39,201 nt of DNA, from contig JBAYJA010000003.1 in assembly GCA_041665345.1 (NCBI GenBank), forward strand, positions 1-39,201, in the 5' to 3' direction. The notes beneath the pieces are model-generated. The model was not told the origin of the DNA, made no database searches, and worked only from the letters and a program-made list of their open reading frames with translations. The stretch comes from Patescibacteria group bacterium. GTDB taxonomy: Bacteria; Patescibacteriota; Patescibacteriia; PEXW01. Below are positions 12,717 through 32,030 of the stretch, one piece after another; positions within the stretch are counted from its first letter, which is position 1; each line of letters starts with the position of its first letter. Made by a program: the position numbers and the translations under genes.

Positions 12717-12731
12717 TGTGTGCTACGAAGC

Positions 12732-13343: not shown

Positions 13344-13352
13344 ATCCGTACC

Positions 13353-14942: not shown

Positions 14943-15035
14943 GTAGGAAGTATACCGTATTGGAGGGGTGGAGGGTTTGGGTGTGGCAGCGAGTATGGTT
15001 AGAGGGTGGCGGTTTAGGATGGGTAGAGGTACGAG
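14943..15035 (-). promoter_or_regulatory. conserved C-rich upstream element, copy B (inverted relative to copy A)
   Basis: Minus-strand reading: ...CCTCTACCCATCC...CCATACTCGCTGCCACACCCAAACCCTCCACCCCTCCAATACGGTATACTTCCTAC|ATG. About 85% identical to copy A over about 70 nt; abuts ATG 14942 with no SD. Confidence 0.6.
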
Positions 15036-15204
15036 TGAAATACAATACTCCTCCCCTCCTTTCGAAGGAGCCGTCTGCGGCGGGTGCGAGCGAGCACAGC
15101 ACCTTAGGTAGGGGGAGGTCACCCTTACCGAGAAAACAAAATCACGCAGAATAAAAGTCTGGAAAAAACAAAAACATATTCTACTTCCTTCTTCTCAATC
15201 CCCT

Positions 15205-15321: not shown

Positions 15322-16380
15322 TTACCCGAGCTTTTTCTTAAAGTAATGCACCCAGTTAATTGTGGCAGGGTTAATATGATTGCGCAAGCCCAAGGCCAAG
15401 GTCAACGCTCCACCAAATGCCACTGCCGCAACTGCTTGCGAAAACCGTGTCTGCCCCGGCACTCGGAAGCTGGCAACTTTCGCAGCGTTTTTCAGCACAA
15501 CCTCGCTCGTCAACCGGAAACGCTTCTGAATGCGAGGATGGTACAGCCCTGAAGTGAGGAAGAGAAACGTCGTTTTCCGGGTATTCACCTTGGGATTGGC
15601 CAGGCCTTCCATGAGGTGGTGATTCAATTCCGGAATGGCAAAGTAGGTAGCCAGAGCTTTAGCGGTTTCATTCAGTTGATTCGCCAGGACATGCGCCGAA
15701 CCAAGAGTGTGCTCTGCACCTATCACAAAGATTTGCCGGTTGAGCAACGTGGCGGTTAAGGTAGCCACAGGATTGCCTAGCTTCCGCAAATCAAGCTGCT
15801 TTGCATACCGTTCAAGGTCACGAATGGCTTGTTCAACTACGGGTAAAGGCAAAGTGATGAGCCCGGATTTGGAAAGCAGACCCAGCAAACCAAATATCCC
15901 ATACCCTAAGCCAAGCCTGGGTTGATCAGACGGGTTTTCTCTGGGGGTAAAGATGTACGCTGGGATATTCCCACGCTTTGCCGCGCGTCCCAACGCCCCG
16001 CCCGTGGCTTGAATTAGGATCTTCGCACCTCGCTGCTGGGCGACCTTCAGTGCGGCCAGGGTTTCTTCCGTCGTACCAGAGTAGCTGGAGAGGACAACCA
16101 ACGTCCGCTTCCCTACCCAAGCAGGCAAATGGTAATCATTCACAATCACAATTGGCACGCGCAAATACTCAGCGCAAGCTGTCTGCAGCATGTGCGCGCC
16201 CAAAGCGCTGCCACCCATGGCGGCAACCACAATCGCATCAACTTTTCCCTTCAATGAGGAGATTTTCAAGCGACGTACTTCTATCCACGCCTGCCTTGCT
16301 TGTGCGCCAAAACGCAGTACTGACCCATGGACATCCTGGGGATCGTACTGCTGCAGCAGTCGAGTGAAAGAGACTGGCAT
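15322..16380 (-). CDS. SIS-domain phosphoglucose/phosphomannose isomerase (bifunctional PGI/PMI-like)
   Basis: 352 aa; two SIS-like Rossmann segments (VVAAMGGSALGAHML and LVVLSSYSGTTEET), size and layout typical of archaeal/bacterial bifunctional PGI/PMI. Confidence 0.6.
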   Translation of the reverse strand: MPVSFTRLLQQYDPQDVHGSVLRFGAQARQAWIEVRRLKISSLKGKVDAIVVAAMGGSALGAHMLQTACAEYLRVPIVIVNDYHLPAWVGKRTLVVLSSYSGTTEETLAALKVAQQRGAKILIQATGGALGRAAKRGNIPAYIFTPRENPSDQPRLGLGYGIFGLLGLLSKSGLITLPLPVVEQAIRDLERYAKQLDLRKLGNPVATLTATLLNRQIFVIGAEHTLGSAHVLANQLNETAKALATYFAIPELNHHLMEGLANPKVNTRKTTFLFLTSGLYHPRIQKRFRLTSEVVLKNAAKVASFRVPGQTRFSQAVAAVAFGGALTLALGLRNHINPATINWVHYFKKKLG

Positions 16381-16647: not shown

Positions 16648-19600
16648 ATGGAAATCAAGTCAAAATTTCACTTTTTTCGTCAGAACAACTTCACCTACCT
16701 GGACAGCGCCGCCACAACCCAAGTACCGGATGCGGTGACGCGTGTGGTGGAGCAGTCTTTGCAGTACAAAGGCAACCCGAATCGTAGTGCGCACGCCGTA
16801 GCGGAAAAAAATGAACAGGCGTTGCAAGCCGCCCGGGAGAATATTGCCGGCTTCATTGGCGCCACGGCAGAGGAACTCATCTTCACAAATAACACTACGG
16901 ACAGTATCAACCTTGCGGTGGATGGTATTGCCGACCATGTAAAGCCTGGTGACGAAATTGTCATCGCCGTGTCTGAACATCACTCCAACATGCTGCCCTA
17001 CACCAAGCTGGTAAAGCGTGGGGCGAAAATCCGCATCGTAGGCATCAAAGACGGCGTGGTCAATCCAAACGATGTGCAGAAAGCGCTTACGCCCAAAACC
17101 CGTATCGTGGCCGTGGGACACTGCTCCAATGTCCTCGGGAACATCAACGACGTGGTAGCTATTGGCAAACTCGTTAAAAACCACGACAAGAAAATCTTCT
17201 TCATTGTGGATGGCGCGCAAGCCGTGGCGCACATCCCAGTAGACGTCCAGGCAATGCAGGCGGACTTCTACGCGTTCTCGGGCCACAAAATGTACGGGCC
17301 AGATGGCGTAGGTGGATTGTACATTGCCCGAAAAATCCACCACCTGCTCACTCCGACACGTATGGGTGGCGGCACCGTGCAGAATGTGGCCATCACCTTT
17401 GATAAAACTGGTGATATCATCTCCCCTGACTACTTCCCGTCGCTCATCACGTTGGAAGGTGGCACGCCAAACCTGTCCAACATTCTCGGCCTTTCTCGCG
17501 CCGTCAACTTCATTCGTTCTATTGGCTTCCCAGATATTCAGGCACACGAACGCGGGCTGCTAAAACGTTTGCTGGATGGGTTGGCGACAATTCCTGGGGT
17601 GCAGGTCTTTGGTCCCACCGACCTCCAACAAAAAATTGGCGTCCTCTCTTTTGGTTTGCAAGACACGAACACCAAAGAACTCGGCGAACACCTTGGTCGC
17701 CAAAAGATCTGCATTCGCTACGGCGCACATTGTGCCTTCCCGCTAGCGGAAAAGCTGGGCCAAGAAACCCTGCGCATTAGTCTGGGCGTGTACAACACCG
17801 AAGAAGACATTGACCACGTGCTCAACGAAATGCGATTCTTCTTCGATAAGAAACAAGGGCGCATTACCAACCCCAACCTGGAGCCCCTGCGCAACAAGCT
17901 CTACTACCGCAGCACCCATGTGGTGAATTCCTATGCTGCCCTGGCCGAAAAGCTGCAGCAATCCCTCTACGGCCCACAGGATACGGAAATTATTGTCATG
18001 GGTGGCCACTTCTTGGGCATACCAGACATGCAGGAAAACCGCTTCTGGCCCAGCATTGCAACCATGGTACCCGAGCGCCTGCACGGCCTCATGGATGAGT
18101 TTGGCATGACGAGCTTTCCGCTTTTCACGTGGCGCTTGGCTTGTCGGACGGTTGCGGATTTGAAAGCGCACGGATACCAAGCAAAACTGGCAATTATTGC
18201 CAATGACACAACGGGAATGAATGAACTTCGTAACTCTGAAGCCAACACAACAAAGAAAACCGCTGAGCAATACCGAACTGAGTTACTAGATACTTTTCAA
18301 GAAGACGGTCATTTACCAAATCGCTATAGTGAAATTCTCAAAGAGCACGGATTGCATAAGCGAGATATTCTCAAGAATGGTGACAAATTCGTATTTCAAG
18401 AAACCTTACTCCGAGCCAACTTCAAAAAATTTGTTGATGGTAATAAAAATTTCTTTGATGGCATCATTGCCTACACAAAAAAGGCAGAGGAGAATATCGA
18501 CTTATCAATTAAACTCCTCGATAATCAGGAAATTGCTTCCTGCACGTTTAATACATTTCAATCAAAAACTGGTGGGAAGTTTTGCATTGTTGAATTGTGT
18601 CAATTTATTGCCGAACTCTTTGGTAAACCAGAACTGATTACATTCCCCTATGTATCACAGCGCGTACTGAAACCAAAGGTGACAGCAAATCACAAGATTC
18701 TTTTTGCAATCACGCCCGCGATGTGCGACAACGCTGTGACGCGATCCGCGGAACTCTACACCAAGCTTTTCCTCCAGGAGCAGAGTAAAGGATCATTTAA
18801 ATTCTTCAACTTGCCCCTAGGCCCAAATGCTGAGCGCAGCTTAGCTATGGGCGCAGAACTCAAGTATGTCTCAGACAAAGACAATCTTGAGGTACTTGAT
18901 ATTGAGCATGAGCCCGCATTTCCAGATCTCTGGCGCTTGGCTGAGTACAAGCTCATCTACAATGCTCCTGCCTATGTAACTGAAATGACCGCGCTTTTTG
19001 CGAAGCTGGGCCTCACCAAGAAATCCGCACTGCTGGATACCTGTGTGGGTCCAGGCTTCTTTGCCACTGAGCTGTTGCGGCAAGGTTACAATCTGCATAC
19101 CGCAGACAAGAGTGAAACCATGATGGCACCATTCCGCGCAACCCTGAAAGAGCTTGGTATCAACCACCAGCCCACAGTGAGCACGTGGCTTGATTTGCCA
19201 AAACACTTCGAGGCAAATTCCATGGATATGCTCTTCAACCGTGGGAACACCTTCATCTACGCGGCAGGCGGCTGGCATGAGCGAATCACCGTGGACCGAG
19301 AAAAATCTTTGGCGAAATATTTAGAGACGTTACGCGTCTACTACAGCCTTCTCAAGCCAGGTGGCTACCTCTACGTAGATAAATTCCGTGATGCAGAAAT
19401 CCCAGATAAAAAAGTTGTTGCTCGGCTGTACATTCAGGAGCCTGCGCAGCAAAAAGACGTAGTCTTCTACGTCGAACGCAAACCAGAAGATCACATTCGC
19501 TTTGCGCAAATGCTCTTGCGCGACACCCAAGGCAAAGAGACTGGATTACCAAACATGGCCTATGACTTGAGCGTAGAAGAAATGGAAATGTTGCTACAGA

Positions 19601-19677
19601 AAGCTGGGTTCAAGAACGTCCAACAACTCAAGCTCGCACAAGAAAAACACTTCGTCGTCTGGCTAGCCCAGAAATAG
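16648..19677 (+). CDS. 1009-aa multidomain protein: N-terminal SufS-like cysteine desulfurase (class V PLP fold), unknown central module, C-terminal GNMT-like class I SAM methyltransferase
   Basis: aa 1-~400: YLDSAATTQ, PLP-Lys motif FSGHKMYGPDGVGGLY, catalytic-Cys loop RYGAHCAFPL (cf. SufS RTGHHCAQP). aa ~730-1009: LLDTCVGPGFFA (motif I), GNTFIYAAGGW, LLKPGGYLYVDKFRD, resembling glycine/sarcosine N-methyltransferases (NSFxH, LLVIDHRNYD). aa ~400-730 unrecognised. 18230-18660 is an A/T-rich in-frame segment. Confidence 0.8.
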   Translation: MEIKSKFHFFRQNNFTYLDSAATTQVPDAVTRVVEQSLQYKGNPNRSAHAVAEKNEQALQAARENIAGFIGATAEELIFTNNTTDSINLAVDGIADHVKPGDEIVIAVSEHHSNMLPYTKLVKRGAKIRIVGIKDGVVNPNDVQKALTPKTRIVAVGHCSNVLGNINDVVAIGKLVKNHDKKIFFIVDGAQAVAHIPVDVQAMQADFYAFSGHKMYGPDGVGGLYIARKIHHLLTPTRMGGGTVQNVAITFDKTGDIISPDYFPSLITLEGGTPNLSNILGLSRAVNFIRSIGFPDIQAHERGLLKRLLDGLATIPGVQVFGPTDLQQKIGVLSFGLQDTNTKELGEHLGRQKICIRYGAHCAFPLAEKLGQETLRISLGVYNTEEDIDHVLNEMRFFFDKKQGRITNPNLEPLRNKLYYRSTHVVNSYAALAEKLQQSLYGPQDTEIIVMGGHFLGIPDMQENRFWPSIATMVPERLHGLMDEFGMTSFPLFTWRLACRTVADLKAHGYQAKLAIIANDTTGMNELRNSEANTTKKTAEQYRTELLDTFQEDGHLPNRYSEILKEHGLHKRDILKNGDKFVFQETLLRANFKKFVDGNKNFFDGIIAYTKKAEENIDLSIKLLDNQEIASCTFNTFQSKTGGKFCIVELCQFIAELFGKPELITFPYVSQRVLKPKVTANHKILFAITPAMCDNAVTRSAELYTKLFLQEQSKGSFKFFNLPLGPNAERSLAMGAELKYVSDKDNLEVLDIEHEPAFPDLWRLAEYKLIYNAPAYVTEMTALFAKLGLTKKSALLDTCVGPGFFATELLRQGYNLHTADKSETMMAPFRATLKELGINHQPTVSTWLDLPKHFEANSMDMLFNRGNTFIYAAGGWHERITVDREKSLAKYLETLRVYYSLLKPGGYLYVDKFRDAEIPDKKVVARLYIQEPAQQKDVVFYVERKPEDHIRFAQMLLRDTQGKETGLPNMAYDLSVEEMEMLLQKAGFKNVQQLKLAQEKHFVVWLAQK

Positions 19678-19685
19678 ACCCAACC

Positions 19686-20531
19686 ATGATGTCTGAAAAA
19701 AATCACGCGCCAAATCAGGACGCGGATAAGGAAAAAACCGAATACAAGACATTCCGCCTAGATCACGAGCCCACGTTTGCGGAGCTGTGGGAGCTGTGCG
19801 TGAATGAGCTGCTCTATAATGCGCCAAAGCATTACGATGAAATTGAGGCACTTTGGGAGCGACAAGGAATAACCAAAGAATCCAAAATTATTGATGTTGC
19901 TGCTGGGAGTGGCTTCCCCGCACTTGGTTTGCTGCAACGAGGGTGGAACATAGACTCCGCTGATGGCTTTACGGATGAGGTGGAACTCTTCAACAAACGT
20001 GCGGAAGAGGCGGGGTTGCCCGAACGCTGCGCCCAAGTGCTATGGGCGGATTTGCTCAAACAGTACCCAAAAGAAGCCTACGACTTCTTACTATGCAGAG
20101 GTAATTCATTCATATACGCGCCGGGGGGTTGGAATGCTGAAGCGCCGATAACCCCGCAGGCTGCACTGGAAGCCTACACCAACACAGCAAAAAACTTCTA
20201 CGATTTGCTCAAACCCGGTGGGCAGATGTACATCGATAAATTCAAAGATACCGAAATCTCGCATAAAGAAACCGTTGCGCGCTTGCAAATTGGTAACGCG
20301 ACCCCAGAAGACCTCATTTTCTGGACCCAACGCTTTTCGGAGCAGCACATTCGCCGTGCGTCCATGATTCGCCGCAAACAGGATGGTACCGAAACTGGCA
20401 CACCGAACATTTCGTATGACCTTACCTTTCCAGAAATGGAAAAGGCATTAACGACGGCTGGTTTTTCCAAGATTGAACAGCAGCAGCTTGAAACAGAAAA
20501 AGTTTTCAACACCTGGATTGCAACAAAGTAA
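19686..20531 (+). CDS. GNMT-like class I SAM-dependent methyltransferase, standalone paralog of the C-terminal domain of the upstream 1009-aa protein
   Basis: 281 aa, co-linear with aa ~730-1009 of the upstream protein: DHEPTFAELWEL/EHEPAFPDLWRL, IDVAAGSGFPA/LDTCVGPGFFA, CRGNSFIYAPGGW/NRGNTFIYAAGGW, LLKPGGQMYIDKFKDTEI/LLKPGGYLYVDKFRDAEI, C-terminal ETEKVFNTWIATK/AQEKHFVVWLAQK. Confidence 0.75.
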   Translation: MMSEKNHAPNQDADKEKTEYKTFRLDHEPTFAELWELCVNELLYNAPKHYDEIEALWERQGITKESKIIDVAAGSGFPALGLLQRGWNIDSADGFTDEVELFNKRAEEAGLPERCAQVLWADLLKQYPKEAYDFLLCRGNSFIYAPGGWNAEAPITPQAALEAYTNTAKNFYDLLKPGGQMYIDKFKDTEISHKETVARLQIGNATPEDLIFWTQRFSEQHIRRASMIRRKQDGTETGTPNISYDLTFPEMEKALTTAGFSKIEQQQLETEKVFNTWIATK

Positions 20532-21374: not shown

Positions 21375-21842
21375 CGCGTTATCCTTGGCATTGACCCGGG
21401 GTTTGGGCGCGTGGGCTGGGGCGTCATCCAGCAAACTGCCAACAAACTAACGGCTATTGACTACGGGGTGATTGAAACCCCAGCGGGCACCCCTTTTGCC
21501 AAGCGCTTGCAGCTCATCTACAGCAAATTAACTGAGCTGATCCATTCCTACAAACCGCAAGTCGGTGGGGTTGAACGCCTCTTCTTCTCGCAGAACACCA
21601 CAACCGCCATGCAGGTGAGTGAGGCGCGCGGGGTGATCCTGCTCACGCTGGCGCAAGCCAAGATTCCCGTGCACGAGTGTACGCCGCAAGCCGTGAAGCA
21701 GACGCTCTCCAGCTACGGCCGCGCGGACAAAGCCCAGGTCCAGCGCATGGTCGCTACACTCCTTCATCTCCCTTCCATTCCCAAGCCTGACGATATCGCG
21801 GATGCCTTGGCCATTGCCATCACCGCCGCAACTTCCACATGA
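21375..21842 (+). CDS. ruvC: crossover junction endodeoxyribonuclease RuvC (5' end/start codon uncertain)
   Basis: RVILGIDPGFGRVGWGV... catalytic N-terminus and ...DIADALAIAIT C-terminus. There is no in-frame ATG/GTG/TTG between the yebC stop (21343) and the conserved ILGIDPG block, so the exact start is unresolved (nonstandard initiator or sequence error). The ORF-track start at 21192 overlaps yebC and is not credible. Confidence 0.75.
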   Translation, partial: RVILGIDPGFGRVGWGVIQQTANKLTAIDYGVIETPAGTPFAKRLQLIYSKLTELIHSYKPQVGGVERLFFSQNTTTAMQVSEARGVILLTLAQAKIPVHECTPQAVKQTLSSYGRADKAQVQRMVATLLHLPSIPKPDDIADALAIAITAATST

Positions 21843-23098
21843 AACGCATCGCCCTCATCAACGTGCACTGCGATCCACTCGAAAGCCTTGGATCCGCAGA
21901 AGCCGGCGGTCAAAATGTCTACGTCCAGCACCTTGCTAAGGCACTTGGCAAACGCGGTTACTATGTGGATGTCTTTTCCCGGCTCAACTCTCGCTCCAAA
22001 AAGGAACGCGTCCGGGTTTCCAAGCACGTGCAATTCATCCGCCTCGTCGCTGGCCACCGGCAGTTCATCCCCAAGAATAAACTGGGGCCACTGCTGCCTG
22101 AATTCATTAGCAACTTCCTGGCCTGGCAGAAACGTGAGGGTGTGCGGTACGACCTGCTGCACTCACACTACTGGGAGGCGGGCTGGGTAACCATGCAGCT
22201 GAAGTACATACTCAAAGTCCCACAGGTCCACACCTTCCACAGCTTGGGCATCATGCGCTACAACGCGCTGAAAGGATTTCGGGAGCAGAGCCTGGATACC
22301 ACGGAAATGAAGAAGCGTATTGCCATTGAAAAAGAAATTACGGAAAAAGCTGAGTGCATTCTGAGCACTAGCCCGTACGAACGTGAGTACCTGGAGAAGC
22401 ACTATGCTGCAAAATCTGAGAACATTCGCGTTGTCCCTTGTGGCGTGGATTTGCAACGCTTCCGACCCATTGACCGAAATGAGGCACGAAAAAAAATTAA
22501 TGCGCCAAACGGCGACAACCTTATTCTCTACACTGGTCGCATTGAGTGGCGCAAGGGCATTGGCACCCTGGCCATTGGCGTCGCTAAACTCTTCAAGCAC
22601 CACCCAGAGCTGCGAGGAAAAACCTGGCTGTACATTGTCGGCGGCAACCTGGGCCGCCGGGCAGAGCCCGAAGTCCGGGAGGAAATCAAACGACTGAAAG
22701 ATGTGTGCCGAGAGTATGGGATACGTGATCGCACCGTATTTACCGGCGCCGTGCAGCAAGAAAAACTCCACTTCTACTACTCAGCGGCAAACGTCTGCGT
22801 CATCCCCTCCTACTACGAGCCTTTTGGCATGGTGCCGTTGGAAGCCATGGCCTGCAAAGTGCCGGTGATCGCCTCTGATACCGGTGGCCTGCCGTACACG
22901 GTTCGGAATATGAAGAGCGGGATTTTAGTCCCCGTTCGCAACCCGGGTGCCATCGCCCATCGCTTAGCCGACGTCCTGACCAAGCGCGAGCTGGCAGAGA
23001 AACTGGTGCGAGGAGGCCGGGAACTTGCAAAGACCACCTTTAGCTGGCGGCTGATTGCGAAGGGCGTCGCCGAGGTGTACGAACGGCTGGTGAAGTAA
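21839..23098 (+). CDS. GT4 glycosyltransferase, sucrose-phosphate-synthase-like (SPS/MshA-type GGQNVYV family)
   Basis: N-terminal MKRIALINVHCDPLESLGSAEAGGQNVYVQHLAKALGKRGYYVDVFSR (SPS/MshA-type signature); C-terminal GT-B E-x7-E region YEPFGMVPLEAMA; 419 aa, like minimal cyanobacterial SPS. Start overlaps the ruvC stop (ATGA). Confidence 0.7.
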   Translation: MKRIALINVHCDPLESLGSAEAGGQNVYVQHLAKALGKRGYYVDVFSRLNSRSKKERVRVSKHVQFIRLVAGHRQFIPKNKLGPLLPEFISNFLAWQKREGVRYDLLHSHYWEAGWVTMQLKYILKVPQVHTFHSLGIMRYNALKGFREQSLDTTEMKKRIAIEKEITEKAECILSTSPYEREYLEKHYAAKSENIRVVPCGVDLQRFRPIDRNEARKKINAPNGDNLILYTGRIEWRKGIGTLAIGVAKLFKHHPELRGKTWLYIVGGNLGRRAEPEVREEIKRLKDVCREYGIRDRTVFTGAVQQEKLHFYYSAANVCVIPSYYEPFGMVPLEAMACKVPVIASDTGGLPYTVRNMKSGILVPVRNPGAIAHRLADVLTKRELAEKLVRGGRELAKTTFSWRLIAKGVAEVYERLVK

Positions 23099-23175
23099 GA
23101 GTTTCAACTATACGAATCGACTCTACTGCGATTTTTTGTAGCCTAAAATGGGACTTATAGTGTAAACTGGAAACC

Positions 23176-23943
23176 ATGGATGACCATCCAACTCCTTCAA
23201 CGATTAATTTTTCCCTTACTCTTCCGCTCTATAACGAGGGGAGTATTCTGCAAAAAAATTTAACTTCTATCCACACAATTTTATCTGGGAAAGGGTCATT
23301 TTCCTTCGAAGTTATCGTTATTGATGATGCTAGTAAAGACGACACAGCTCGCAGCGCAAAACAGTTTTGTGACCATCTACCAAATTGGCATTTCCTGCAA
23401 AATGAAAAAAATCTTGGCCGGGGTGGTACGGTAATGCGGGGTTTTCGTGAATCACGGGGAACGATCGTTGGCTTTATTGACGTCGACTGCGAAGCTTCGC
23501 CAATGTACCTGTTGGATTTCATTCCGGATTTACTCGCACATAAAGTTGATGGGATTACCGGCATGCGCATATACCCATTTTCATTTTCAACATTCCTTCG
23601 CGCTGGGACAAGCTACCTCTATCGCCAACTTGTGCAACTATTTTTACGCGTAGCGTACAAGGACAGGCAATCTGGGTATAAAACATTTCGTCGGGAAGCA
23701 ATTTTACCACTCCTAGCGTACACAAAAAATCAGCATTGGTTTTGGGACACGGAGATTATGGTCATTGCACACCTGGCTGGTTTACGTATTGAGGAAAGGC
23801 CCATTTTGTTCTACCGTGACACTGCAAAAAAATCTACGGTGAAACTCTTTCGAGACAGTATGCTGATGGTGAGGGAACTCTTTCGCTTTCGAGCACGTAT
23901 GCCGCAACTTGCGGCTGACTTAGCCGAACGCACGAACCGCTAA
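23176..23943 (+). CDS. GT2 glycosyltransferase (polyprenyl-phosphate sugar transferase, DPM1/GtrB-like)
   Basis: LTLPLYNEGSIL, VIVIDDASKDDT (DxD-type nucleotide-sugar-binding acidic motif), second acidic motif IDVDCE; 255 aa. Visibly more A/T-rich than the flanking genes. Confidence 0.8.
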   Translation: MDDHPTPSTINFSLTLPLYNEGSILQKNLTSIHTILSGKGSFSFEVIVIDDASKDDTARSAKQFCDHLPNWHFLQNEKNLGRGGTVMRGFRESRGTIVGFIDVDCEASPMYLLDFIPDLLAHKVDGITGMRIYPFSFSTFLRAGTSYLYRQLVQLFLRVAYKDRQSGYKTFRREAILPLLAYTKNQHWFWDTEIMVIAHLAGLRIEERPILFYRDTAKKSTVKLFRDSMLMVRELFRFRARMPQLAADLAERTNR

Positions 23944-23945
23944 GC

Positions 23946-24686
23946 ATGGAGTCGCAGCTGTACCACACTTTTGCGCAAAATGAGATGACTCATTGGTGGT
24001 TTGTGGGTCGGCGGGAAATTTTTTCCGCGGTCTTCAAGAAATTACTGCAAAAAAAAGAATTACAAATCTTAGACGTAGGGTGCGGAACAGGGGGCAACCT
24101 ACCACTCCTCGCTGGCTATGGAAACGTCGTTGGGATTGATAATAGCCCCACGGCCGTGGCGTACGCAAAAACCCAAGGATACACATCCGTAATTTGTGCC
24201 GATGCATCCAAGCTCCCATTTGCAGACAACTCCTTTGACTGTGTCGTGGCAATTGACATTATCGAGCACATGCAAGACGATTCCGCATTCGTCAAAGAGC
24301 TCCACCGGGTACTCACACCCGAGGGATTTGCGGTACTTTCAACGGCCGCTTTTTCTTTTTTGTGGAGCTCACACGACACTCGAAACCAACATTGGCGACG
24401 GTACACCAAAAAGCAGCTTACTGCGTGCTTTCCAAAGAATCTCTGGCTTTCGAAGATCGTGCGATACTACAACTTCATTTTTTTTCCAGTGATTGCAGTC
24501 ATTCGCCTGTGCCAAAAGTTGATACCGGAAAGGACCCCAAAAGAGGGGGCGGCGTGGGAACTTGCAACCCCACCCACCCTATTCAATGCTGTACTTCACA
24601 GTGTCCTTGCCGCCGAAAGATTCTTTTTGCGATTTCCAATACCCTGGGGGGTTTCTCTACTAGCGGTATACCAAAAAAGGAAGTGA
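23946..24686 (+). CDS. class I SAM-dependent methyltransferase
   Basis: Motif I ILDVGCGTGGNL, GIDNSP, FDCVVAIDIIEHMQD; 246 aa; part of the A/T-rich cassette. Confidence 0.8.
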   Translation: MESQLYHTFAQNEMTHWWFVGRREIFSAVFKKLLQKKELQILDVGCGTGGNLPLLAGYGNVVGIDNSPTAVAYAKTQGYTSVICADASKLPFADNSFDCVVAIDIIEHMQDDSAFVKELHRVLTPEGFAVLSTAAFSFLWSSHDTRNQHWRRYTKKQLTACFPKNLWLSKIVRYYNFIFFPVIAVIRLCQKLIPERTPKEGAAWELATPPTLFNAVLHSVLAAERFFLRFPIPWGVSLLAVYQKRK

Positions 24687-24691
24687 GGCAG

Positions 24692-25585
24692 ATGCATATC
24701 GCCATGTTTGGGGGGACAGGATACGTTGGGAGTGCTTTGCGCGCACATTTGGCTAGCCAACGTATTCGAGTGAGTGTTTTTTCACCCCACTCCCCTAGCC
24801 CACTCTACCCTCTGGAAACCCACGTGGTTGCCGACCCATGGTCTGCCAGAATTGAACCCGGGGTATTTACGCATATCCTTGACTTCTACGGCGTATCTGG
24901 AGATGCGGCCTGTGCTCGGAATCCGCAGGAGGCAGCGTATAGAAACGTAGACTCGGTTCGTGCGCTCATGCATGCAGCGGCGGGTACAGGCATTGATAGA
25001 TTCGTCTATGTCTCTACTGCTTCAGTGTTTGATGATGGTGTCCAGAAAACGGGGAATGAATTTTTTGAAAACGATGTGCCTCGTCCTGCAACAGTGTACG
25101 GCGATACAAAGCGAATTGCGGAAAATCTACTCCTATCACAAGAAAAGGTACCCTGCACAATTATTCGCCATCCAACAATCTATGGCCTATCGCCGTGCAT
25201 GCGATGGGACACATTGATGCAATTTTGCGTTCAGCAAGCAAAAAAAGAGGGGGTGGTGCGCATGTTTGGGGATGGGAGTGCGTTTCGCCCCCTCGCCGCG
25301 TTGTCACACGTTGTTGCTGGATACGCACATGTGCTACATTCTCCCCCACCTTCACAGTCTTGCTTCCACATTGTTTCTGAGAATGAGCCAATTCGTAACT
25401 ACCTAGAGAGAATCCAGCAGGTTGCCAAGGAATGTGGGCAGCGTATTAGCGTGGAAACGGTAGAGCAGTCCTACGTCCCAAGCTATCGGGTGCACAGTTC
25501 TTTCCCCTATACCAACCGACCAGAGTATTCTTTCGAGCTCCTTCAAGCTATTTGGAAAGCGGCGGTCGGTCGCAATCACCTGTAG
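24692..25585 (+). CDS. NAD-dependent epimerase/dehydratase (SDR family)
   Basis: Start at ATG 24692 with SD AAGGAAGTGAGG. N-terminal GGTGYVGS Rossmann motif, catalytic YGDTK (YxxxK). The ORF-track 5' extension to 24362 overlaps the methyltransferase and is rejected. Confidence 0.8.
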   Translation: MHIAMFGGTGYVGSALRAHLASQRIRVSVFSPHSPSPLYPLETHVVADPWSARIEPGVFTHILDFYGVSGDAACARNPQEAAYRNVDSVRALMHAAAGTGIDRFVYVSTASVFDDGVQKTGNEFFENDVPRPATVYGDTKRIAENLLLSQEKVPCTIIRHPTIYGLSPCMRWDTLMQFCVQQAKKEGVVRMFGDGSAFRPLAALSHVVAGYAHVLHSPPPSQSCFHIVSENEPIRNYLERIQQVAKECGQRISVETVEQSYVPSYRVHSSFPYTNRPEYSFELLQAIWKAAVGRNHL

Positions 25586-25646
25586 CTGGCGCTTGATTGC
25601 CAAAGGCGTGGCCGAAGTGTACGAACGAATGGTGGAGAAAAAATAA
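25576..25646 (+). pseudogene. relic 3'-end fragment of an SPS-like GT4 gene (duplicate of 23034-23098)
   Basis: CACCTGTAGCTGGCGCTTGATTGCCAAAGGCGTGGCCGAAGTGTACGAACGAATGGTGGAG...TAA is about 80% identical to the last about 65 nt of the GT4 at 21839..23098 (..SWRLIAKGVAEVYERLVK*). It would encode SWRLIAKGVAEVYERMVEKK*. The epimerase stop TAG lies inside it. Confidence 0.6.
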
Positions 25647-25657
25647 CTTTACCGGCG

Positions 25658-26731
25658 CTAGGTCTCCGTACGATCGGTTCGGATTTTTTGTATTCGCTCC
25701 GCCCGCTGCAGCACTTCCGCAGCGTAGCTAATACTCTCAGGACCAAGCCGATCACCTTTTTCAACGTAGATTGCTTTCAGGGCTCCATCTTCTCCCATGA
25801 CCCTACGGAAGCTACTCTTCCCAGGTTTTTCCGGGGCTGACGCATCAACCGCGGAAACAAGTTCTGACTTTGCGCCACCAACCACCACAGCTTGCAACTT
25901 CCCTGACCGCATGAGCATGTCGGTGTCATTCCCGCTGTCACCCGCCACCAAACCTTTTTCCACATTCGTAAGCTTCGCTACGTAGTCAACGGCTCCGGCT
26001 TTGGTTATGGGCAGAACGTCCAGGCAGTACTTTTTTCGTGGTTCACCCTCGTGCTCACGGTTGTAGCCAATTTCCTCGCAGGCCACCAGCTCCTGACCGG
26101 GAAAGGCTGTGGCCGCCTCTTGCATCACTCCCTCCACTCCTGCCGGTGCGTCAGCGAAAAAGTAAAAGCTGAGCTTGAATTCCTGCACCGCCTGGTTCAC
26201 CGCTTCGGGCTCCGGGTTAGCGAGGTACCGCCTTTCTGCCTCGGGTTTCTGGTATACGACCTCAGCAGCTTGGGCAGGTTGACTGACGAGAAAGGCACTG
26301 GCGGCAGCGGCAATTTCTGGCCGGTTGAAGTGCTTTTCTTCCAGCAGCATCTTCCGATACGCTTCATCTCTTCGGTACGTACCGTCGGGCTGCAGGACGT
26401 GGATTTCCGTTCCCACAGAACCAATGAGCACTGGGAATTTTGGCAACTCCCCAGCTGCCTGCCGCTTCTGAATACCAGCTAGGTCATTCCCGGTCACGGC
26501 AACCAGTGGATACTCCAGCTCCTCCGCCTTCGCAAAAAGCACTTCCGATTCCTGCTGCCGGTCTTTGCGGTGGAAGGTGTTATCAATGTCCGTAAACCCA
26601 ACAGTAAAGCCCTCACCCCGTTCAGCTTGCTTGGCTTTCATTGCTAGATACGGTGAATCTCGGTAAACCGCCAAAGCCTGCTCGAGTTCTGCATCTGGGT
26701 TGTACTGCTCTCTACCTTCAAATGACATCAC
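25658..26731 (-). CDS. HAD-IIB phosphatase, sucrose-phosphate-phosphatase (SPP)-like
   Basis: HAD motif I FTDIDNTF (DxDxT), motif II VAVTGN, motifs III/IV K...GDSGNDTDML characteristic of the SPP/S6PP family; 357 aa. Confidence 0.7.
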   Translation of the reverse strand: MMSFEGREQYNPDAELEQALAVYRDSPYLAMKAKQAERGEGFTVGFTDIDNTFHRKDRQQESEVLFAKAEELEYPLVAVTGNDLAGIQKRQAAGELPKFPVLIGSVGTEIHVLQPDGTYRRDEAYRKMLLEEKHFNRPEIAAAASAFLVSQPAQAAEVVYQKPEAERRYLANPEPEAVNQAVQEFKLSFYFFADAPAGVEGVMQEAATAFPGQELVACEEIGYNREHEGEPRKKYCLDVLPITKAGAVDYVAKLTNVEKGLVAGDSGNDTDMLMRSGKLQAVVVGGAKSELVSAVDASAPEKPGKSSFRRVMGEDGALKAIYVEKGDRLGPESISYAAEVLQRAERIQKIRTDRTET

Positions 26732-26785
26732 GATATGGTGTAAGTAAGGTATACTACCAGTACTCTACCACTTACCTTTGCCCGT

Positions 26786-27835
26786 ATGAAGAAGCTCCGG
26801 ATTGCGCAGCTGGTTCCGTTTGAAGAAACTGTCCCTCCCACCAAGTACGGCGGCACAGAGCTCGTCGCAGCAAACCTCTGCGATGGGTTGGTGAAACAAG
26901 GACATGACGTCACCCTCTTCTCCGTGGGCGGTTCCAAGACCAAGGCCAAGTTGGTGAAGATTTTTCCCGGCTCACTTCGCGCCATGACTGGCACCGACGT
27001 GAAGCAACGAGAATCTTTGAAGTACATGGGCGTGGGCAAGGTGCTCACCGCGGTGGCGGCTGGAAAATTCGACATTGTCCACAACCACATTGGCTGGCGC
27101 GTGCTGCCCTTCACCGGCATGATCCCCCACCCTGTGGTCACCACGCTCCACGGACCCTTGGACATTGGCTACCAGCAAATGGTGTACAAGCCCTACAGCC
27201 ACACCCCGTTCGTTTCCATATCCAACAACCAGCGCAAACCCCTGAAGCTCAACTACGCGGCCACCGTGTACAACGGTATTCATGTGGAAAAGTTTGCCTA
27301 CCTGGAGAAGAAGGATGACTACCTGGCGTTTTTGGGCCGCATGAGCCCAGAGAAAGGTCCGGTGCAGGCCATCCAGGTGGCAAGGAAAACTAAACGTCGT
27401 TTGATAATGGCCGCGAAAGTGGATGCGGTGGATGTGAAGTTCTTCACCGAGAAGGTGAAACCGCTCATTGACGGCAAGCAAATCAAATTCTTGGGTGAAG
27501 TGGATCACGTTGGAAAATCCAAACTCCTGTCCCGCGCTGCAGGCTTGCTGGCGCTCATCCAGTGGGAAGAGCCCTTTGGCCTCTTCATGGCAGAGGCTAA
27601 TGCCTGCGGCACGCCGGTCATTGCCATGGCACGGGGAGCCGCGCCTGAGGTGATTGCCCACAAGCAGACTGGCTTCCTGGTGCACTCCAATGACGAAGCG
27701 GCGCGCATGGTGAGCAAGCTGGGAACAATTAGACCCGCGGCCTGCCGAAAACGAGCGGAGCAGTACTTTTCCGTGGAAGCAATGGTCGCTGGGTACCTGG
27801 CGGTGTACCAAAAGCTCATCCGGCAGTGGCGGTAA
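26786..27835 (+). CDS. GT4 glycosyltransferase (small, ~350 aa), paralog a
   Basis: N-terminal KKLRIAQLVPFEETVPPTKYGGTELVAANL..GH.VTLF; C-terminal GT-B motif WEEPFGLFMAEANACGTPVIA (E-x7-E). Paralogous to 28827..29885 and 29882..30922. Confidence 0.8.
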   Translation: MKKLRIAQLVPFEETVPPTKYGGTELVAANLCDGLVKQGHDVTLFSVGGSKTKAKLVKIFPGSLRAMTGTDVKQRESLKYMGVGKVLTAVAAGKFDIVHNHIGWRVLPFTGMIPHPVVTTLHGPLDIGYQQMVYKPYSHTPFVSISNNQRKPLKLNYAATVYNGIHVEKFAYLEKKDDYLAFLGRMSPEKGPVQAIQVARKTKRRLIMAAKVDAVDVKFFTEKVKPLIDGKQIKFLGEVDHVGKSKLLSRAAGLLALIQWEEPFGLFMAEANACGTPVIAMARGAAPEVIAHKQTGFLVHSNDEAARMVSKLGTIRPAACRKRAEQYFSVEAMVAGYLAVYQKLIRQWR

Positions 27836-28830
27836 ATCCACATATGACTCGGACCGCCCTCCTGAAGCACGTTCGCGGCCTCCTGCAGAAACGCGGGTTA
27901 ACCCCAGATGCCGATGTGAAAGAAATGCTCAACCACCAGCGACGGTTTTTTCGTACGCGCTGCGTGGATGCAAAGGGCCGGGCCTACACCTTCAAGGTGT
28001 ACCTCATGCGCGTGCCAACCACGCGGCACGACTTCCAGCACGAAATTGCTTTCTACCACTTCACGGCCAAAGCGCGGCTGAACCAATTTCCTCGCTGGGT
28101 GGAAGGAAATCGAACCGGAGCACACCCCTGGATTCTCTACCACTACATACCCGGCGAGCTCTTCACGGCGTACCTCCGCAAACATCGGAACCACGTTCCA
28201 CCAAAGCTCATCGCCAACCTCAGCCACATGCTGGCACACTACGGCCAGCTGCCCATTCCTCTGGCTACACGCCGGCTCCTCCACCTCCAAGCACACCGCG
28301 CCAGTGACTTTACTGCCCGCTTTCGAACCTACGCTCGGGGGAAAAACGGCCAGACACTTCGGACGTACCTCAGTGATGCTGAGCTTGAAGTTGCTGCACG
28401 CATTGTGGCGTTCCACCAGCTCGAACGGCATACCCGGCACCAATTAGGCATTAGCCACGGCGACTTAAGTACAAATAACCTCCTCGTGGATCAGGGACGC
28501 TTTGCGGTACTAGACTGGGAGCATATTCAAATTGCCTCCCCGGCGTACGACGTGGCGGAACTCTGGGTCAAAGAATTCAGCCGCGCACCCTGGCGGAACC
28601 GGCTGGTAAAAAAAGTTGCTGACCTGCAGCCAGACCACGCTGCCTTTAGCGCGCTCTTCGCCATTGAGGTACTACTTTTCTGCCTCCGGGATATTCTCCT
28701 CCACCACCGCATCCTCTCGGAGCTGCACCACACCAAGAATAAAGTGATTGTCCGTAAACTCTTACGCTACTACGTTCGCACATTCCGCGCCGGGCTGCAT
28801 GGCTTTTCCTCGCTTATGAAAAATGCATGA
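27826..28830 (+). CDS. APH/choline-kinase-family phosphotransferase (putative sugar or small-molecule kinase)
   Basis: Brenner catalytic motif ISHGDLSTNNLLVD and downstream LDWEH (DxE metal-binding). 334 aa; overlaps the upstream GT4 stop by 10 nt and the downstream GT4 start by 4 nt. Confidence 0.65.
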   Translation: MAVNPHMTRTALLKHVRGLLQKRGLTPDADVKEMLNHQRRFFRTRCVDAKGRAYTFKVYLMRVPTTRHDFQHEIAFYHFTAKARLNQFPRWVEGNRTGAHPWILYHYIPGELFTAYLRKHRNHVPPKLIANLSHMLAHYGQLPIPLATRRLLHLQAHRASDFTARFRTYARGKNGQTLRTYLSDAELEVAARIVAFHQLERHTRHQLGISHGDLSTNNLLVDQGRFAVLDWEHIQIASPAYDVAELWVKEFSRAPWRNRLVKKVADLQPDHAAFSALFAIEVLLFCLRDILLHHRILSELHHTKNKVIVRKLLRYYVRTFRAGLHGFSSLMKNA

Positions 28831-29885
28831 ACAAATCTCGCAGACTCCGCATTGCCCAAGTTGCTCCCCTGGCTGAACGCGTTCCACCCCGCAAGTACGG
28901 CGGTACCGAATTGGTCATTGCAAATTTGGTGCAAGGCTTGGTCAAGCGCGGACACAGCGTGACACTCTTCGCGCGGTCCGATTCCGACACGCCTGCAAAG
29001 CTGGTTCCCGCCTACCACCCTGACCCGCGCGCGACCAACCGCAGCCGTATTCGGGGCTACAGCGTACCAGCCTTTTGGCAAATGCTGCAGTACGGCCATG
29101 TCTTTGAGCACGCCAACGATTTTGACATCATCCACATGCACGTGGGATCGAGTAGCTTCCCTTACACCCGGCTGGTACAAACGCCGTGCGTGCTCACGCT
29201 GCATGGCCGTTTGAACACGAGTGAAGCGAAAATTGTGCACCAAGCCTACCCAGAAATTCCCCTGGTCTCCATTTCTAACAACCAGCGTGAACCGCTCCCC
29301 AAACTGAACTTCATTCGCACCGTGTACAATGGCATTGACGTTGCCAAATTCCGCTACAACGACCGCCCCAAAAAGTACCTAGCATTCCTGGGTCGGATGA
29401 GCCCAGAGAAGGGCCCAGTAGAAGCAATGCAGGCGGCAAAGAAAGCGGGCTTACCTTTGGTCATGGCCGCAAAAGTGGACACCGTGGATGAAGCGTACTT
29501 CATGAAGAAAGTCCGACCGTTCATTGATGGGAAGCGGGTGATCTTCCTTGGTGAAGTAAACCATGCAAAAAAGGTGGATCTCCTCCGTAATGCCTTGGGT
29601 TTGCTGGCGCTCATCCAGTGGGAAGAACCTTTTGGCTTGTTCATGACCGAAGCCATGGCCTGCGGCACACCAGTGATTGCCACCCGCCGGGGCGCCGTGC
29701 CAGAAATTGTGGTGGATGGGAAAACGGGGTTCATTGTTGCCTCCGTTGCCGGGGCAGCTAAGGCAATTGCCAAGCTGCAGACCATTGATCGTGCGGCCTG
29801 CCGGGCACGAGTGGAAAAAGGCTTCTCCCTTGATACAATGGTAGATGGGTACCTCGCGGCCTATGCCAAACTCCTGAAAAAATGA
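28827..29885 (+). CDS. GT4 glycosyltransferase (small), paralog b
   Basis: RLRIAQVAPLAERVPPRKYGGTELVIANL...GHSVTLF; WEEPFGLFMTEAMACGTPVIA; closely related to 26786..27835 (same blocks throughout). Confidence 0.8.
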   Translation: MNKSRRLRIAQVAPLAERVPPRKYGGTELVIANLVQGLVKRGHSVTLFARSDSDTPAKLVPAYHPDPRATNRSRIRGYSVPAFWQMLQYGHVFEHANDFDIIHMHVGSSSFPYTRLVQTPCVLTLHGRLNTSEAKIVHQAYPEIPLVSISNNQREPLPKLNFIRTVYNGIDVAKFRYNDRPKKYLAFLGRMSPEKGPVEAMQAAKKAGLPLVMAAKVDTVDEAYFMKKVRPFIDGKRVIFLGEVNHAKKVDLLRNALGLLALIQWEEPFGLFMTEAMACGTPVIATRRGAVPEIVVDGKTGFIVASVAGAAKAIAKLQTIDRAACRARVEKGFSLDTMVDGYLAAYAKLLKK

Positions 29886-30922
29886 AGAAACCAAAGATAG
29901 CTATCCTCGCCTCCAACCTCTTCCCCATTCCGCCGCAGCGTACGGCCGCGGCTGAGCTTATTGTCTCCCAAATTACCGAAGGGCTTGTGAAACGTGGCTT
30001 TCCGGTGACGCTCTACGCTGCCGGTGATACCAAAACCAAAGCGCGCTTGGTTGCCGCCACCCCCCGCGCCTCCATCCGTGAGCCCAAGATTGGCATGGAA
30101 AACCACAAGGCCTACGAGCTCATCCAAACCAGCAATGCCTACCGAGATGCCACGCGCTGGGGCGCCAACGTCCTGCTCTCCCACGTGCCCATGATGAGCG
30201 CGCACTTCTCCCCGTTCGCCCCTTTTCCATCCACTGCGCTCCTGCACAGTCCGCCAACTTTCACGGACCAAGCGGTCATGCGAACCTACAGCAAGACGCA
30301 GAGCTACATTGCCATTTCCAAAGCGCAGCGCAACTTGGCGCCTGGCGCACGTTTCATTCAGACCATTCAGCACGGCGTGGATCTACACAAACTCCCCTTC
30401 CACCCCAAGCCCGGCACGTACCTGGCCTTCCTGGGTCGCATCCGCAACTACAAAGGCGTACATGAGGCTATTACCGTGGCGCATCGGCTCAACCTACCTT
30501 TACGCATTGCCGGCCCCATTGGCGACCCCGTGTACTTTGCCCAACAAGTGAAGCCCTACCTCAACAGCCGCATCCGGTACATTGGTGAAATTACCCACCG
30601 AGAGAAAGGCGCCTTCTTGGGCAATGCCCTGGCCACACTCTTCCCCATTTCGTGGGATGAACCCTTTGGCTTGGTGCTCATTGAATCATTGGCCGTGGGC
30701 ACACCCGTGGTGGCATTCAAGCGTGGCTCGGTCCCAGAAATTCTCAAGGATGGGAAAACTGGTTTCATTGTCAAAAATACTGCAGCCATGGCGCAAGCAG
30801 TCCGGCACATCGACGCAATTGACCGAGCGGTCTGCCGCAAAGACATGGAAAAACGTTTCAGCCTTGACCGCATGGTGGATGACTATGCTGCTTTACTTAC
30901 ACGTCTAGCCGCCGGTAAGTAG
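29882..30922 (+). CDS. GT4 glycosyltransferase (small), paralog c (more divergent)
   Basis: KIAILASNLFPIPPQRTAAAELIVSQITEGLVKRGFPVTLYA; WDEPFGLVLIESLAVGTPVVA; start overlaps the upstream stop (ATGA). Confidence 0.75.
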   Translation: MKKPKIAILASNLFPIPPQRTAAAELIVSQITEGLVKRGFPVTLYAAGDTKTKARLVAATPRASIREPKIGMENHKAYELIQTSNAYRDATRWGANVLLSHVPMMSAHFSPFAPFPSTALLHSPPTFTDQAVMRTYSKTQSYIAISKAQRNLAPGARFIQTIQHGVDLHKLPFHPKPGTYLAFLGRIRNYKGVHEAITVAHRLNLPLRIAGPIGDPVYFAQQVKPYLNSRIRYIGEITHREKGAFLGNALATLFPISWDEPFGLVLIESLAVGTPVVAFKRGSVPEILKDGKTGFIVKNTAAMAQAVRHIDAIDRAVCRKDMEKRFSLDRMVDDYAALLTRLAAGK

Positions 30923-31097: not shown

Positions 31098-32030
31098 ATG
31101 CCTGTCCGCTCACCTGAACTTCGGCTTGACCCCATCCACGATCGGGCAGTGGTCATTGCGCCAAAGCGGAACATCCGTCCGCACGATATTCCAGACCCCT
31201 ACGTCCGAACGGTTCGGCCGCAGCAGTGCCCATTTTGCCCAGAAAGCATTAAGGGGAAACACCCCACAGCGCACCTTGGCCGGGGAAAAAATCTGATTCG
31301 CGCCATTGCCAATGACTACCCAGCCGTGAGTTTGAAGACTCCCAAAGCCTACGGCTACCAGGAAGTCATCATTGACACCCCGGATCATGACGCGGACTTG
31401 GGCGAGCTGAGCGTGACGCAGCTTGATCACTTACTGAGTTTCTACCAGCTACGAACAAAAGCAATTGCCCGGATTCCCAACATTGAGTACATTCTCATTT
31501 TCAAAAATCACGGAGGCAAATCCGGCGCCAGCTTGGTGCACGCCCACTCGCAGGTGTTTGCCACGGGCTTTGTGCCGCCGCACATTGTGCTCAAACTCCA
31601 GAACGTTCGGCAATACAAGCTGGAGCACGGCCACTGCTACTACTGCAAGCTTCTGGCTGATGAGAAGAAGGGTCCCCGCCGCATTCTCAGCAACAAGTAC
31701 GTTACGGCGTTCGCGCCCTACGCCTCAGCCTACCCGTACGAAGTCTGGCTCTTCCCCAACCGGCACCTGGATAACTGTACTCGCCTGAGCTTGGTGGAGC
31801 GTCGGGCGTTTGCCGCTGCACTCCAATCGATCCTCAAGAAGCTCAACCTCATCCGCGCGTCGTACAACTACTACCTCCACCAGACCCTTACTGACCAGGA
31901 CGAACACTTCTACCTGCGCATCGCCCCGCGCGAGCAAACCTGGGGCGGGGTAGAAGTCGGCTCCCGTCTGGTCATCAACGGCGTGGCCCCTGAGGACGCG
32001 GCGAAGTTTTTCCGGAAAGGAATCCGCTAG
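31098..32030 (+). CDS. GalT-branch HIT-superfamily nucleotidyltransferase (galactose-1-phosphate uridylyltransferase / NDP-sugar phosphorylase-like)
   Basis: Zn-knuckle CPFCPE near the N-terminus and active-site HxHxQ (LVHAHSQVFA), typical of GalT (HPHGQ) and ADP-glucose phosphorylase relatives; 310 aa. Confidence 0.7.
   Translation: MPVRSPELRLDPIHDRAVVIAPKRNIRPHDIPDPYVRTVRPQQCPFCPESIKGKHPTAHLGRGKNLIRAIANDYPAVSLKTPKAYGYQEVIIDTPDHDADLGELSVTQLDHLLSFYQLRTKAIARIPNIEYILIFKNHGGKSGASLVHAHSQVFATGFVPPHIVLKLQNVRQYKLEHGHCYYCKLLADEKKGPRRILSNKYVTAFAPYASAYPYEVWLFPNRHLDNCTRLSLVERRAFAAALQSILKKLNLIRASYNYYLHQTLTDQDEHFYLRIAPREQTWGGVEVGSRLVINGVAPEDAAKFFRKGIR

Follow-up and report, generated by a model that had tools for sequence, protein, structure and literature searches.

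A conserved Patescibacteria gene cluster with a putative sucrose-6-phosphate synthase, an S6PP-family phosphatase and three glucosylsucrose-synthase-like glycosyltransferases

Gene content around the synthase-like and phosphatase genes

The sequence studied here, the window, is a 39,201-nt stretch of the Patescibacteria contig JBAYJA010000003.1, and public near-identical proteins carry Patescibacteria source names. It contains a gene for a family 4 glycosyltransferase (GT4-A) that resembles sucrose-phosphate synthase (SPS) and, in opposite orientation, a gene for a phosphatase of the haloacid dehalogenase (HAD) type that resembles sucrose phosphatase. A cassette of three further genes lies between the two. 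For comparison, loci L001-L007, L009, L011, L012 and L091-L095, among others, were fetched. L006 (GCA_964436225.1) is the closest relative fetched, with about 81% nucleotide identity to the window. L091 is a Moranbacteria contig, L011 belongs to a Saccharimonadales genome, and L012 and L095 are Chloroflexota-type loci. The features between the two genes and at their ends are as follows.

21839-23098, plus strand: GT4-A, a single-domain SPS-like GT4 of the Thermosynechococcus elongatus SPS (TeSPS) type, 419 aa, assigned from a PDB sequence search, residues and a tree
23035-23098, plus strand: direct-repeat copy A, the live GT4-A 3' end, 64-nt repeat with copy B
23099-25576, plus strand: inserted cassette, three genes with no counterpart in collinear relatives
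23176-23943, plus strand: family 2 glycosyltransferase (GT2) in the cassette, assigned by Pfam
23946-24686, plus strand: S-adenosylmethionine-dependent methyltransferase in the cassette, assigned by Pfam
24692-25585, plus strand: NAD epimerase/RmlD-like reductase in the cassette, assigned by Pfam
25577-25646, plus strand: GT4-A 3'-end relic, direct-repeat copy B, assigned from the repeat and the L006 alignment
25658-26731, minus strand: S6PP-family HAD-IIB phosphatase, sucrose-phosphatase-like, 357 aa, assigned by Pfam S6PP

The 3' end of GT4-A is present twice. The 64-nt direct repeat at 23035-23098 and 25577-25640 shows 83% identity, and the expected number of chance pairs of such quality in 5.5 kb is about 3e-13. 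The second copy translates in frame to TCSWRLIAKGVAEVYERMVEKK followed by a stop codon, and the live GT4-A C-terminus reads TFSWRLIAKGVAEVYERLVK followed by a stop codon. The relic stop codon (25644-25646) is separated by 11 nt from the stop codon of the HAD gene (25658-25660). The relic proposed in the initial annotation is a true copy of the GT4-A 3' end and marks the ancestral end of the gene.

L006 and the window are collinear to the left and right of the insertion. The GT4 3' end of L006 (6192-6248) aligns to both repeat copies, on the HAD side the alignment continues into the relic as far as window position 25574, and window positions 23089-25573 have no match anywhere in L006. The GC content of the cassette genes is 44.7%, 48.7% and 51.4%, versus 55-57% for the flanking genes. 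In cassette-free relatives the GT4 and HAD genes are convergent, 20 nt apart in L006 and 6 nt apart in L001, and the tail-to-tail arrangement that had been reconstructed by removing the cassette from the window can be seen there directly. GT4-A and HAD were therefore tail-to-tail ancestrally, and a foreign cassette of 2.5 kb with lower GC content came later at the GT4-A end. Both genes are intact despite the insertion. Among the fetched loci the cassette proteins have no match except for weak GT2 matches.

Because the insert is flanked by direct copies of the gene end, we infer that it arose by single-crossover integration of a DNA circle that carried short homology to the GT4 3' end. Copies A and B match at 51 of 61 positions, and each matches L006 at fewer positions (46/61 and 47/61, respectively). 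Seven of the ten differences between the copies are synonymous. We also considered which copy is native, but the sites are too few to choose between duplication in situ and import from a relative. The last three codons and the stop of the epimerase reading frame (NHL and stop, 25574-25585) come from the relic, and the native epimerase C-terminus may have been lost at this junction. The window contains no tRNA genes, and a promoter and terminator scan of 22900-27000 gave fewer matches than shuffled sequence.

The gap between the SPS-like and HAD genes also carries cargo elsewhere. In L007 it contains an EamA transporter (9457-10769), and in L003 and L004 a TrmB-family regulator together with two genes without known function (L003 7145-9258). 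This suggests an insertion hot spot, because the same gap holds different cargo in different relatives.

Family assignment of GT4-A and the HAD phosphatase

GT4-A matches the Pfam families Glycos_transf_1 and Glyco_transf_4. It contains the sequence AEAGGQNVYVQ and with it the motif GGQNVYV, which had been reported at 21839-23098 from the sequence alone. The attribution of the same motif to MshA was mistaken, as the MshA of Corynebacterium glutamicum reads GGMNVY. In a PDB sequence search the best match of GT4-A is TeSPS (Tll1590, 6KIH) with 311 bits, followed by C. glutamicum MshA with 210, Halothermothrix orenii SPS with 97 and GlgM with 80 bits. The corresponding BLASTP identities are 39% to TeSPS, 32% to MshA and 24% to H. 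orenii SPS. TeSPS has been shown to form sucrose-6-phosphate and has been co-crystallised with it (PMC7264703).

The functional residues of TeSPS were mapped onto GT4-A in an alignment of the query with 119 homologues and three references, using the numbering of the TeSPS paper (PMC7264703). The catalytic residues His158 and Glu331 are identical in GT4-A. The same is true for Arg178, which binds the sugar phosphate, for Arg249, Arg253 and Glu339, which bind UDP, and for the fructose contacts Ala48 and Gln51. Arg105 is replaced by Lys, a change shared with H. orenii SPS. At three positions GT4-A and both solved SPSs agree with each other and differ from MshA, with Q versus M at position 51, P versus S at position 332 and R or K versus F at position 253.

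These residues bear on a different assignment, in which GT4-A would be an enzyme of the MshA or BshA type that makes GlcNAc-inositol-phosphate or a similar precursor of thiols or the cell wall, and the HAD protein would supply the phosphatase missing from that route. In favour of this, MshA takes a phosphorylated acceptor, and its product requires a phosphatase. Some homologues are labelled D-inositol-3-phosphate glycosyltransferase, and the mycothiol MshA model (TIGR03449) is the top NCBIfam match of GT4-A. However, its score of 292.8 bits lies far under the cut-off of 462.5, and GT4-A also stays below the cut-off of the model for the SPS glycosyltransferase domain (TIGR02472, 157.4 versus 576 bits). 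The validated TeSPS behaves in the same way, with 287.7 bits for MshA and 144.9 bits for TIGR02472 (sucr_P_syn_N), both sub-threshold. The single-domain type is not captured by TIGR02472, because the validated enzyme fails it too, and the top rank of MshA is uninformative for GT4-A because TeSPS gives the same pattern. An MshA-like assignment from the NCBIfam ranking alone was rejected for this reason. GT4-A differs from MshA at the three positions named above (Q, P and R instead of M, S and F), it is nearer to TeSPS than to MshA, its neighbours are TeGSS-like (see below), and no genes for mycothiol or bacillithiol synthesis were seen in the window. We regard the MshA- or BshA-type assignment as very improbable.

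The placement of GT4-A had been named as a check in the initial annotation. In a neighbour-joining tree with 100 bootstraps, and with one MshA and two SPSs as references, TeSPS falls into a clade of 22 members with 97% support that includes all four cyanobacterium-labelled homologues. A clade of 95 members from the candidate phyla radiation (CPR), to which GT4-A belongs, is the sister of the TeSPS clade, and MshA lies outside at backbone support of 46-50%. Sequence search, residues and tree support a grouping of GT4-A with the validated unidomain SPS of Thermosynechococcus and not with MshA.

The HAD protein contains FTDIDNTF and VAGDSGNDTDM, and so the DIDNT and GDSGND motifs noted previously. 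Its score for the Pfam family S6PP (PF05116) is 68.1 bits at a cut-off of 20.3, and the Cof-type family Hydrolase_3 scores lower with 26.7 bits. In an alignment of 41 homologues, motifs I to IV (DxDxT, T-G, K and GDxxxD) are invariant at D48, D50, T80, G81, K244, G264, D265, N268 and D269. The AlphaFold model built from this alignment has a mean predicted local distance difference test (pLDDT) score of 93. The nearest solved fold is that of sucrose phosphatase (SPP), and generic Cof-type enzymes rank below it. Both the family scores and the structural ranking argue against a generic Cof-type phosphatase, the possibility that had been raised against the pairing.

With 357 aa versus 244 aa, the HAD protein is larger than the SPP of Synechocystis by about 110 residues. 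Its close family is rare. Among genomes sampled at one per species, it was found in three Patescibacteria or unclassified genomes and in one Chloroflexota genome. Matches at 25-30% identity in the same data are mostly C-terminal SPP-like domains of two-domain SPSs. By these comparisons the HAD protein is a divergent, predicted S6PP-family phosphatase and not an orthologue of the plant or cyanobacterial SPP.

The HAD protein is also less similar to its L006 counterpart than its surroundings are, with 74% amino acid identity versus 91-95% for neighbouring genes. At the nucleotide level the middle of the gene (26013-26438) is 45-68% identical to L006, whereas the gene ends and neighbours are 78-90% identical. 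We rejected import of the HAD gene together with the cassette, as in a sliding comparison of nucleotide identity only 26013-26438 shows the added divergence, both ends of the gene are normal and there is no clear recombination block.

Glucosylsucrose-synthase-like neighbours and conservation of the cluster

Beyond the HAD gene lie three GT4 genes related to the glucosylsucrose synthase (GSS) of T. elongatus (TeGSS), together with a kinase gene and a gene for a GalT-like protein. Two further genes of the window encode candidate precursor suppliers.

26786-27835, plus strand: GSS_B, glucosylsucrose-synthase-like GT4 (TeGSS, 7FG9/8X3Q, 310 bits, 47% identity)
27826-28830, plus strand: APH-fold small-molecule kinase, between GSS_B and GSS_C (Pfam APH, 64.5 bits)
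28827-29885, plus strand: GSS_C, glucosylsucrose-synthase-like GT4, closest of the three to TeGSS (332 bits, 51% identity)
29882-30922, plus strand: GSS_D, more divergent GSS-like GT4 (TeGSS, 242 bits, 39% identity)
31098-32030, plus strand: GalT-like hexose-1-phosphate uridylyltransferase homologue (Pfam GalP_UDP_transf, 48 bits)
1961-2872, plus strand: GalU, UTP--glucose-1-phosphate uridylyltransferase (TIGR01099, 329.4 bits, above the cut-off of 326.8; Pfam NTP_transferase)
15322-16380, minus strand: bifunctional phosphoglucose/phosphomannose isomerase (PGI/PMI) family protein (Pfam bact-PGI_C, 81 bits)

The best PDB matches of GSS_B, GSS_C and GSS_D are TeGSS (tll1591; 7FG9/7FGA). TeGSS elongates sucrose from UDP-glucose by adding alpha-1,2-glucose, and its gene tll1591 adjoins the TeSPS gene tll1590 in T. 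elongatus (PMC9909042). The TeGSS residues Tyr18, Arg179, Lys184, Trp254, Glu256 and Glu264 are kept in GSS_B and GSS_C; in GSS_D, Thr replaces Tyr18.

The kinase belongs to a small family. We found 25 homologues, and all those with a taxon label are from Patescibacteria or labelled 'bacterium'. The motifs HGDLSTNN and DWE are invariant. The AlphaFold2 model has a pLDDT of 89, and its best folds are aminoglycoside and antibiotic kinases. A substrate assignment from structure was ruled out, as the model matches such generic kinases only. The GalT-like protein is matched by the NCBIfam galT models below their cut-offs. Its gene is tied to the cluster in L006, L009, L092 and L093.

The galU and PGI/PMI genes expected in the same window were both found. 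For the latter, the top NCBIfam matches are models of bifunctional phosphoglucose/phosphomannose isomerases, all below cut-off. The PGI/PMI gene directly adjoins the unit of YebC, RuvC and GT4 in L001, L003, L006 and L092, and a single AIRS-domain gene lies between in L007. The order YebC, RuvC, SPS-like gene is kept in L001, L003, L006, L007, L092 and L093. In the window the GT4-A start codon overlaps the RuvC stop codon (ATGA, 21839-21842), which couples the putative sugar pathway to Holliday-junction genes.

Between PGI and YebC, window positions 16648-20531 are likely a second insertion with a GC content of about 49%. This region encodes a 1009-aa protein, in which a class-V aminotransferase is joined to a methyltransferase-like C-terminus, and a 281-aa paralogue of that C-terminus. 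Its genes have no counterpart in any fetched Patescibacteria relative, and PGI abuts YebC in L001, L003 and L006. Further upstream are genes for a T4SS-pilin-domain protein (4275-5072) and a DUF2079 membrane protein (6001-8019). Several large open reading frames have no Pfam match (8016-15122 and 32027-36046).

The cluster is conserved in relatives. As far as contig ends permit, the order PGI, YebC-RuvC-SPS-like, HAD and GSS-APH-GSS-GSS-GalT is common to L001-L004, L006, L007 and L009; L009 ends just past HAD, and its SPS-like side is not visible. Adjacency of SPS-like and GSS-like genes recurs in divergent CPR genomes. In L005 the HAD gene is convergent with GSS-GSS-SPS, in L093 RuvC and RuvA/RuvB flank the co-directional genes GalT-HAD-SPS-GSS-GSS, L092 contains SPS-GSS-GSS-APH-GSS-X-GalT and no HAD, and in L091 SPS-GSS is followed by a major facilitator superfamily (MFS) transporter. 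The SPS-like gene lies at most 3.5 kb from HAD in L001-L007, L011 and L093, which are all the fetched full-length loci with flanks and with a HAD at least 40% identical. Homologues that are labelled cyanobacterial or close to TeSPS are solitary in their loci and gave no context. About 7 kb upstream of the SPS-like and GSS-like pair of L091 lies a pair of genes of the CBASS type (CD-NTase and Cap15 effector, L091 1-1192), which is probably unrelated.

The composition of the cluster could also be read as a route to a cell-envelope glycoconjugate. The GT4s, the kinase and the GalT-like protein would then build a glycolipid, a teichoic-acid-like polymer or an S-layer glycan, and the HAD protein would be an unrelated housekeeping sugar phosphatase located nearby. 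Envelope synthesis is a common role of GT4 clusters, and a kinase among glycosyltransferase genes resembles the kinases of the lipopolysaccharide core. The cassette of GT2, methyltransferase and epimerase that was inserted at this site is of an envelope type, and the MFS transporter of L091 is linked to the SPS-like and GSS-like pair. However, the conserved core is without polyprenyl-phosphate transferase, flippase or polymerase, and GT4-A keeps the basic residues for a soluble sugar phosphate. The linkage of HAD and SPS-like genes persists down to 40% identity and across gene orders. Relatives also carry invertase-like genes. We hold an envelope role to be distinctly unlikely.

These invertase-like genes belong to two families. 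A gene of the glycoside hydrolase (GH) family GH100 type stands beside HAD in L003, L004, L007 and L009. Its best Pfam match is alkaline/neutral invertase with 83-101 bits, and among solved structures its product is most closely related to plant CINV1 and Anabaena InvA/InvB. It is located between HAD and the first GSS at 4075-5364 in L003, 11882-13147 in L007 and 6305-7567 in L009, and is absent from the window and from L006. In L011 the SPS-like gene is followed by the S6PP-family HAD and a GH32/GH68-like gene, and then by a GT4 and a GH13 gene. Two unrelated hydrolase families of sucrose-cleaving type adjoin the same synthase and phosphatase pair in two CPR lineages, and because of this the product would be sucrose or a close relative. 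This is our strongest contextual argument.

Distant relatives of the HAD protein have other neighbours. In L012 (7528-10930) and L095 (4615-10461) a GSS-like GT4 and an S6PP-family HAD adjoin TreT, and OtsA is nearby in L095. In this Chloroflexota-type compatible-solute neighbourhood, a different sugar phosphate may be the substrate of the distant HAD.

Proposed pathway and comparison with known systems

We give slightly better than even chances to the conclusion that the conserved Patescibacteria cluster encodes a sucrose-6-phosphate synthase and phosphatase pair that feeds sucrose-primed glucosylation. GalU would supply the donor UDP-glucose, and PGI the acceptor fructose-6-phosphate. GT4-A would form sucrose-6-phosphate from the two, and the convergent S6PP-family HAD would release sucrose. 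The three TeGSS-like GT4s would then add glucose units to sucrose and yield oligosaccharides of the glucosylsucrose or sucroglucan type. Where relatives carry an invertase-like hydrolase, it would turn the product over. The synthase and phosphatase pair proposed in the initial annotation stands in so far as an SPS-like GT4 and an S6PP-family HAD are present, but the module is larger than this pair. As the module also has three GSS-like GT4s, a kinase of the APH fold and a gene for a GalT-like protein, its final product is probably more than a disaccharide. From the gene content we infer that the actual sugars may be those named above and that they may serve as compatible solutes.

Several observations weigh against this conclusion. 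The identity of GT4-A to TeSPS is just 39%, versus 32% to MshA, and the nodes of the tree backbone that separate MshA have weak support and few references. Sequences of mannosylfructose-phosphate synthase and of Anabaena SPS-A/B were not part of the tree. The HAD protein scores below every NCBIfam cut-off for SPP (TIGR01485, 33.2 versus 183.65; TIGR01482, 38.3 versus 107.15), and a profile-to-sequence ranking places the kanosamine-6-phosphate phosphatase NtdB with 77 bits over SPP with 48 bits. The position of SPP Ser44, whose role is described in PMC5113954, is Asp in the alignment. HAD is absent within 8 kb of the CPR clusters L091 and L092, and one distant HAD stands alone in its locus (L094). 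In the GSS paralogues the fructose-stacking Trp10 is lost, being E in GSS_B, A in GSS_C and L in GSS_D, and the acceptor rim (Tyr70, Glu74, Tyr97, Arg117, Thr119 and Asn122) is mostly altered. Because Trp10 and most rim positions are changed, their acceptor specificity may differ from that of TeGSS. Finally, the cyanobacterial pathway as known includes no step for the kinase or the GalT-like gene.

The same logic of synthase and phosphatase could apply to another sugar. GDP-mannose could be used to make mannosylfructose-phosphate, for instance, or the pair could make a different hexosyl-ketose or glycoside, and the GSS-like enzymes would then decorate this product. The sugar-reading residues of TeSPS touch O3 and O6 of glucose, and O2 touches the UDP phosphate only (PMC7264703), so that a C2 epimer is compatible with the sequence. 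An isomerase of the bifunctional PGI/PMI type is encoded in the window, a ManC-like nucleotidyltransferase gene lies beside PGI in L092, and the acceptor rims of the GSS paralogues are unlike that of TeGSS. Against this, both GT4-A and the GSS-like GT4s have sucrose enzymes, TeSPS and TeGSS, as their nearest characterised counterparts, a galU equivalog is present within the window, and the GH100-like and GH32/68-like genes of the relatives speak for sucrose-type beta-fructofuranosides. We therefore consider another sugar unlikely and retain sucrose as the preferred product of the pair.

A more far-reaching version of the sucrose pathway can be put forward tentatively, as a possibility that is doubtful at present. 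Here, non-photosynthetic Patescibacteria with small genomes would make sucrose and, primed by it, alpha-glucan oligosaccharides (sucroglucans) through a lineage-specific extended pathway, in which three diverged GSS paralogues would act together with an APH-fold kinase that phosphorylates a sugar or intermediate and a GalT-like nucleotide-sugar exchanger. If this is true, the product could serve for storage or osmoprotection, or be exchanged with a host. Minimal and often host-dependent organisms would then devote six to eight genes to a soluble reserve or protective sugar, which would bear on stress survival and on exchange with the host. The cluster further offers a divergent type of sucrose phosphatase, three GSS paralogues with different acceptor rims and an orphan sugar-cluster kinase as candidates.

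Sucrose synthesis is usually associated with cyanobacteria and plants, and scattered cases are known in other bacteria. Glucosylsucrose synthase was first identified in 2022, and to our knowledge the enzyme and sucroglucans have so far been described from cyanobacteria only. In the literature searched we found no paper that ties Patescibacteria to SPS, or GSS to non-cyanobacteria. The kinds of enzymes are known; for the combination of a divergent, enlarged S6PP phosphatase, three GSSs, a GalT-like gene and a kinase within the cluster, coupling to RuvC and a Patescibacteria host we found no published description there.

Among known systems, MshA (TIGR03449; 3C48) is also a GT4 with a phosphorylated acceptor and shares phosphate-binding K/R residues with GT4-A. 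In contrast to MshA, GT4-A has the motifs GGQN and EPFG instead of GGMN and ESFG and stands in no mycothiol context. The bacterial two-domain SPS (TIGR02472/TIGR02471) pairs the same two activities. Here they would reside in separate genes, which face each other in this lineage and run in the same direction in L011 and L093. The SPP of Synechocystis sp. PCC 6803 (1S2O) has the motifs DxDxT, TG, K and GDSGND, which are present in the HAD protein too, and the HAD gene is linked to an SPS-like gene. The HAD protein is, however, just 19-24% identical in structural alignments, and its model shows helices at both termini and a cap that is larger.

The closest parallel is the gene pair of T. elongatus. 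GT4-A is similar to tll1590 (TeSPS, 6KIH) over its full length, and the catalytic, phosphate-binding and fructose-contact residues are kept. GSS_B and GSS_C keep the UDP-binding and catalytic residues of tll1591 (TeGSS, 7FG9/7FGA). In contrast to T. elongatus, the window has three GSS paralogues instead of one, the acceptor rim is not conserved, and the cluster embeds an APH-fold kinase and a GalT-like gene and is adjacent to an S6PP-family HAD. The host is a non-photosynthetic member of the CPR, and GT4-A is translationally coupled to RuvC. Common to both is the linkage of SPS and GSS genes in T. elongatus and of SPS-like and GSS-like genes in the CPR.

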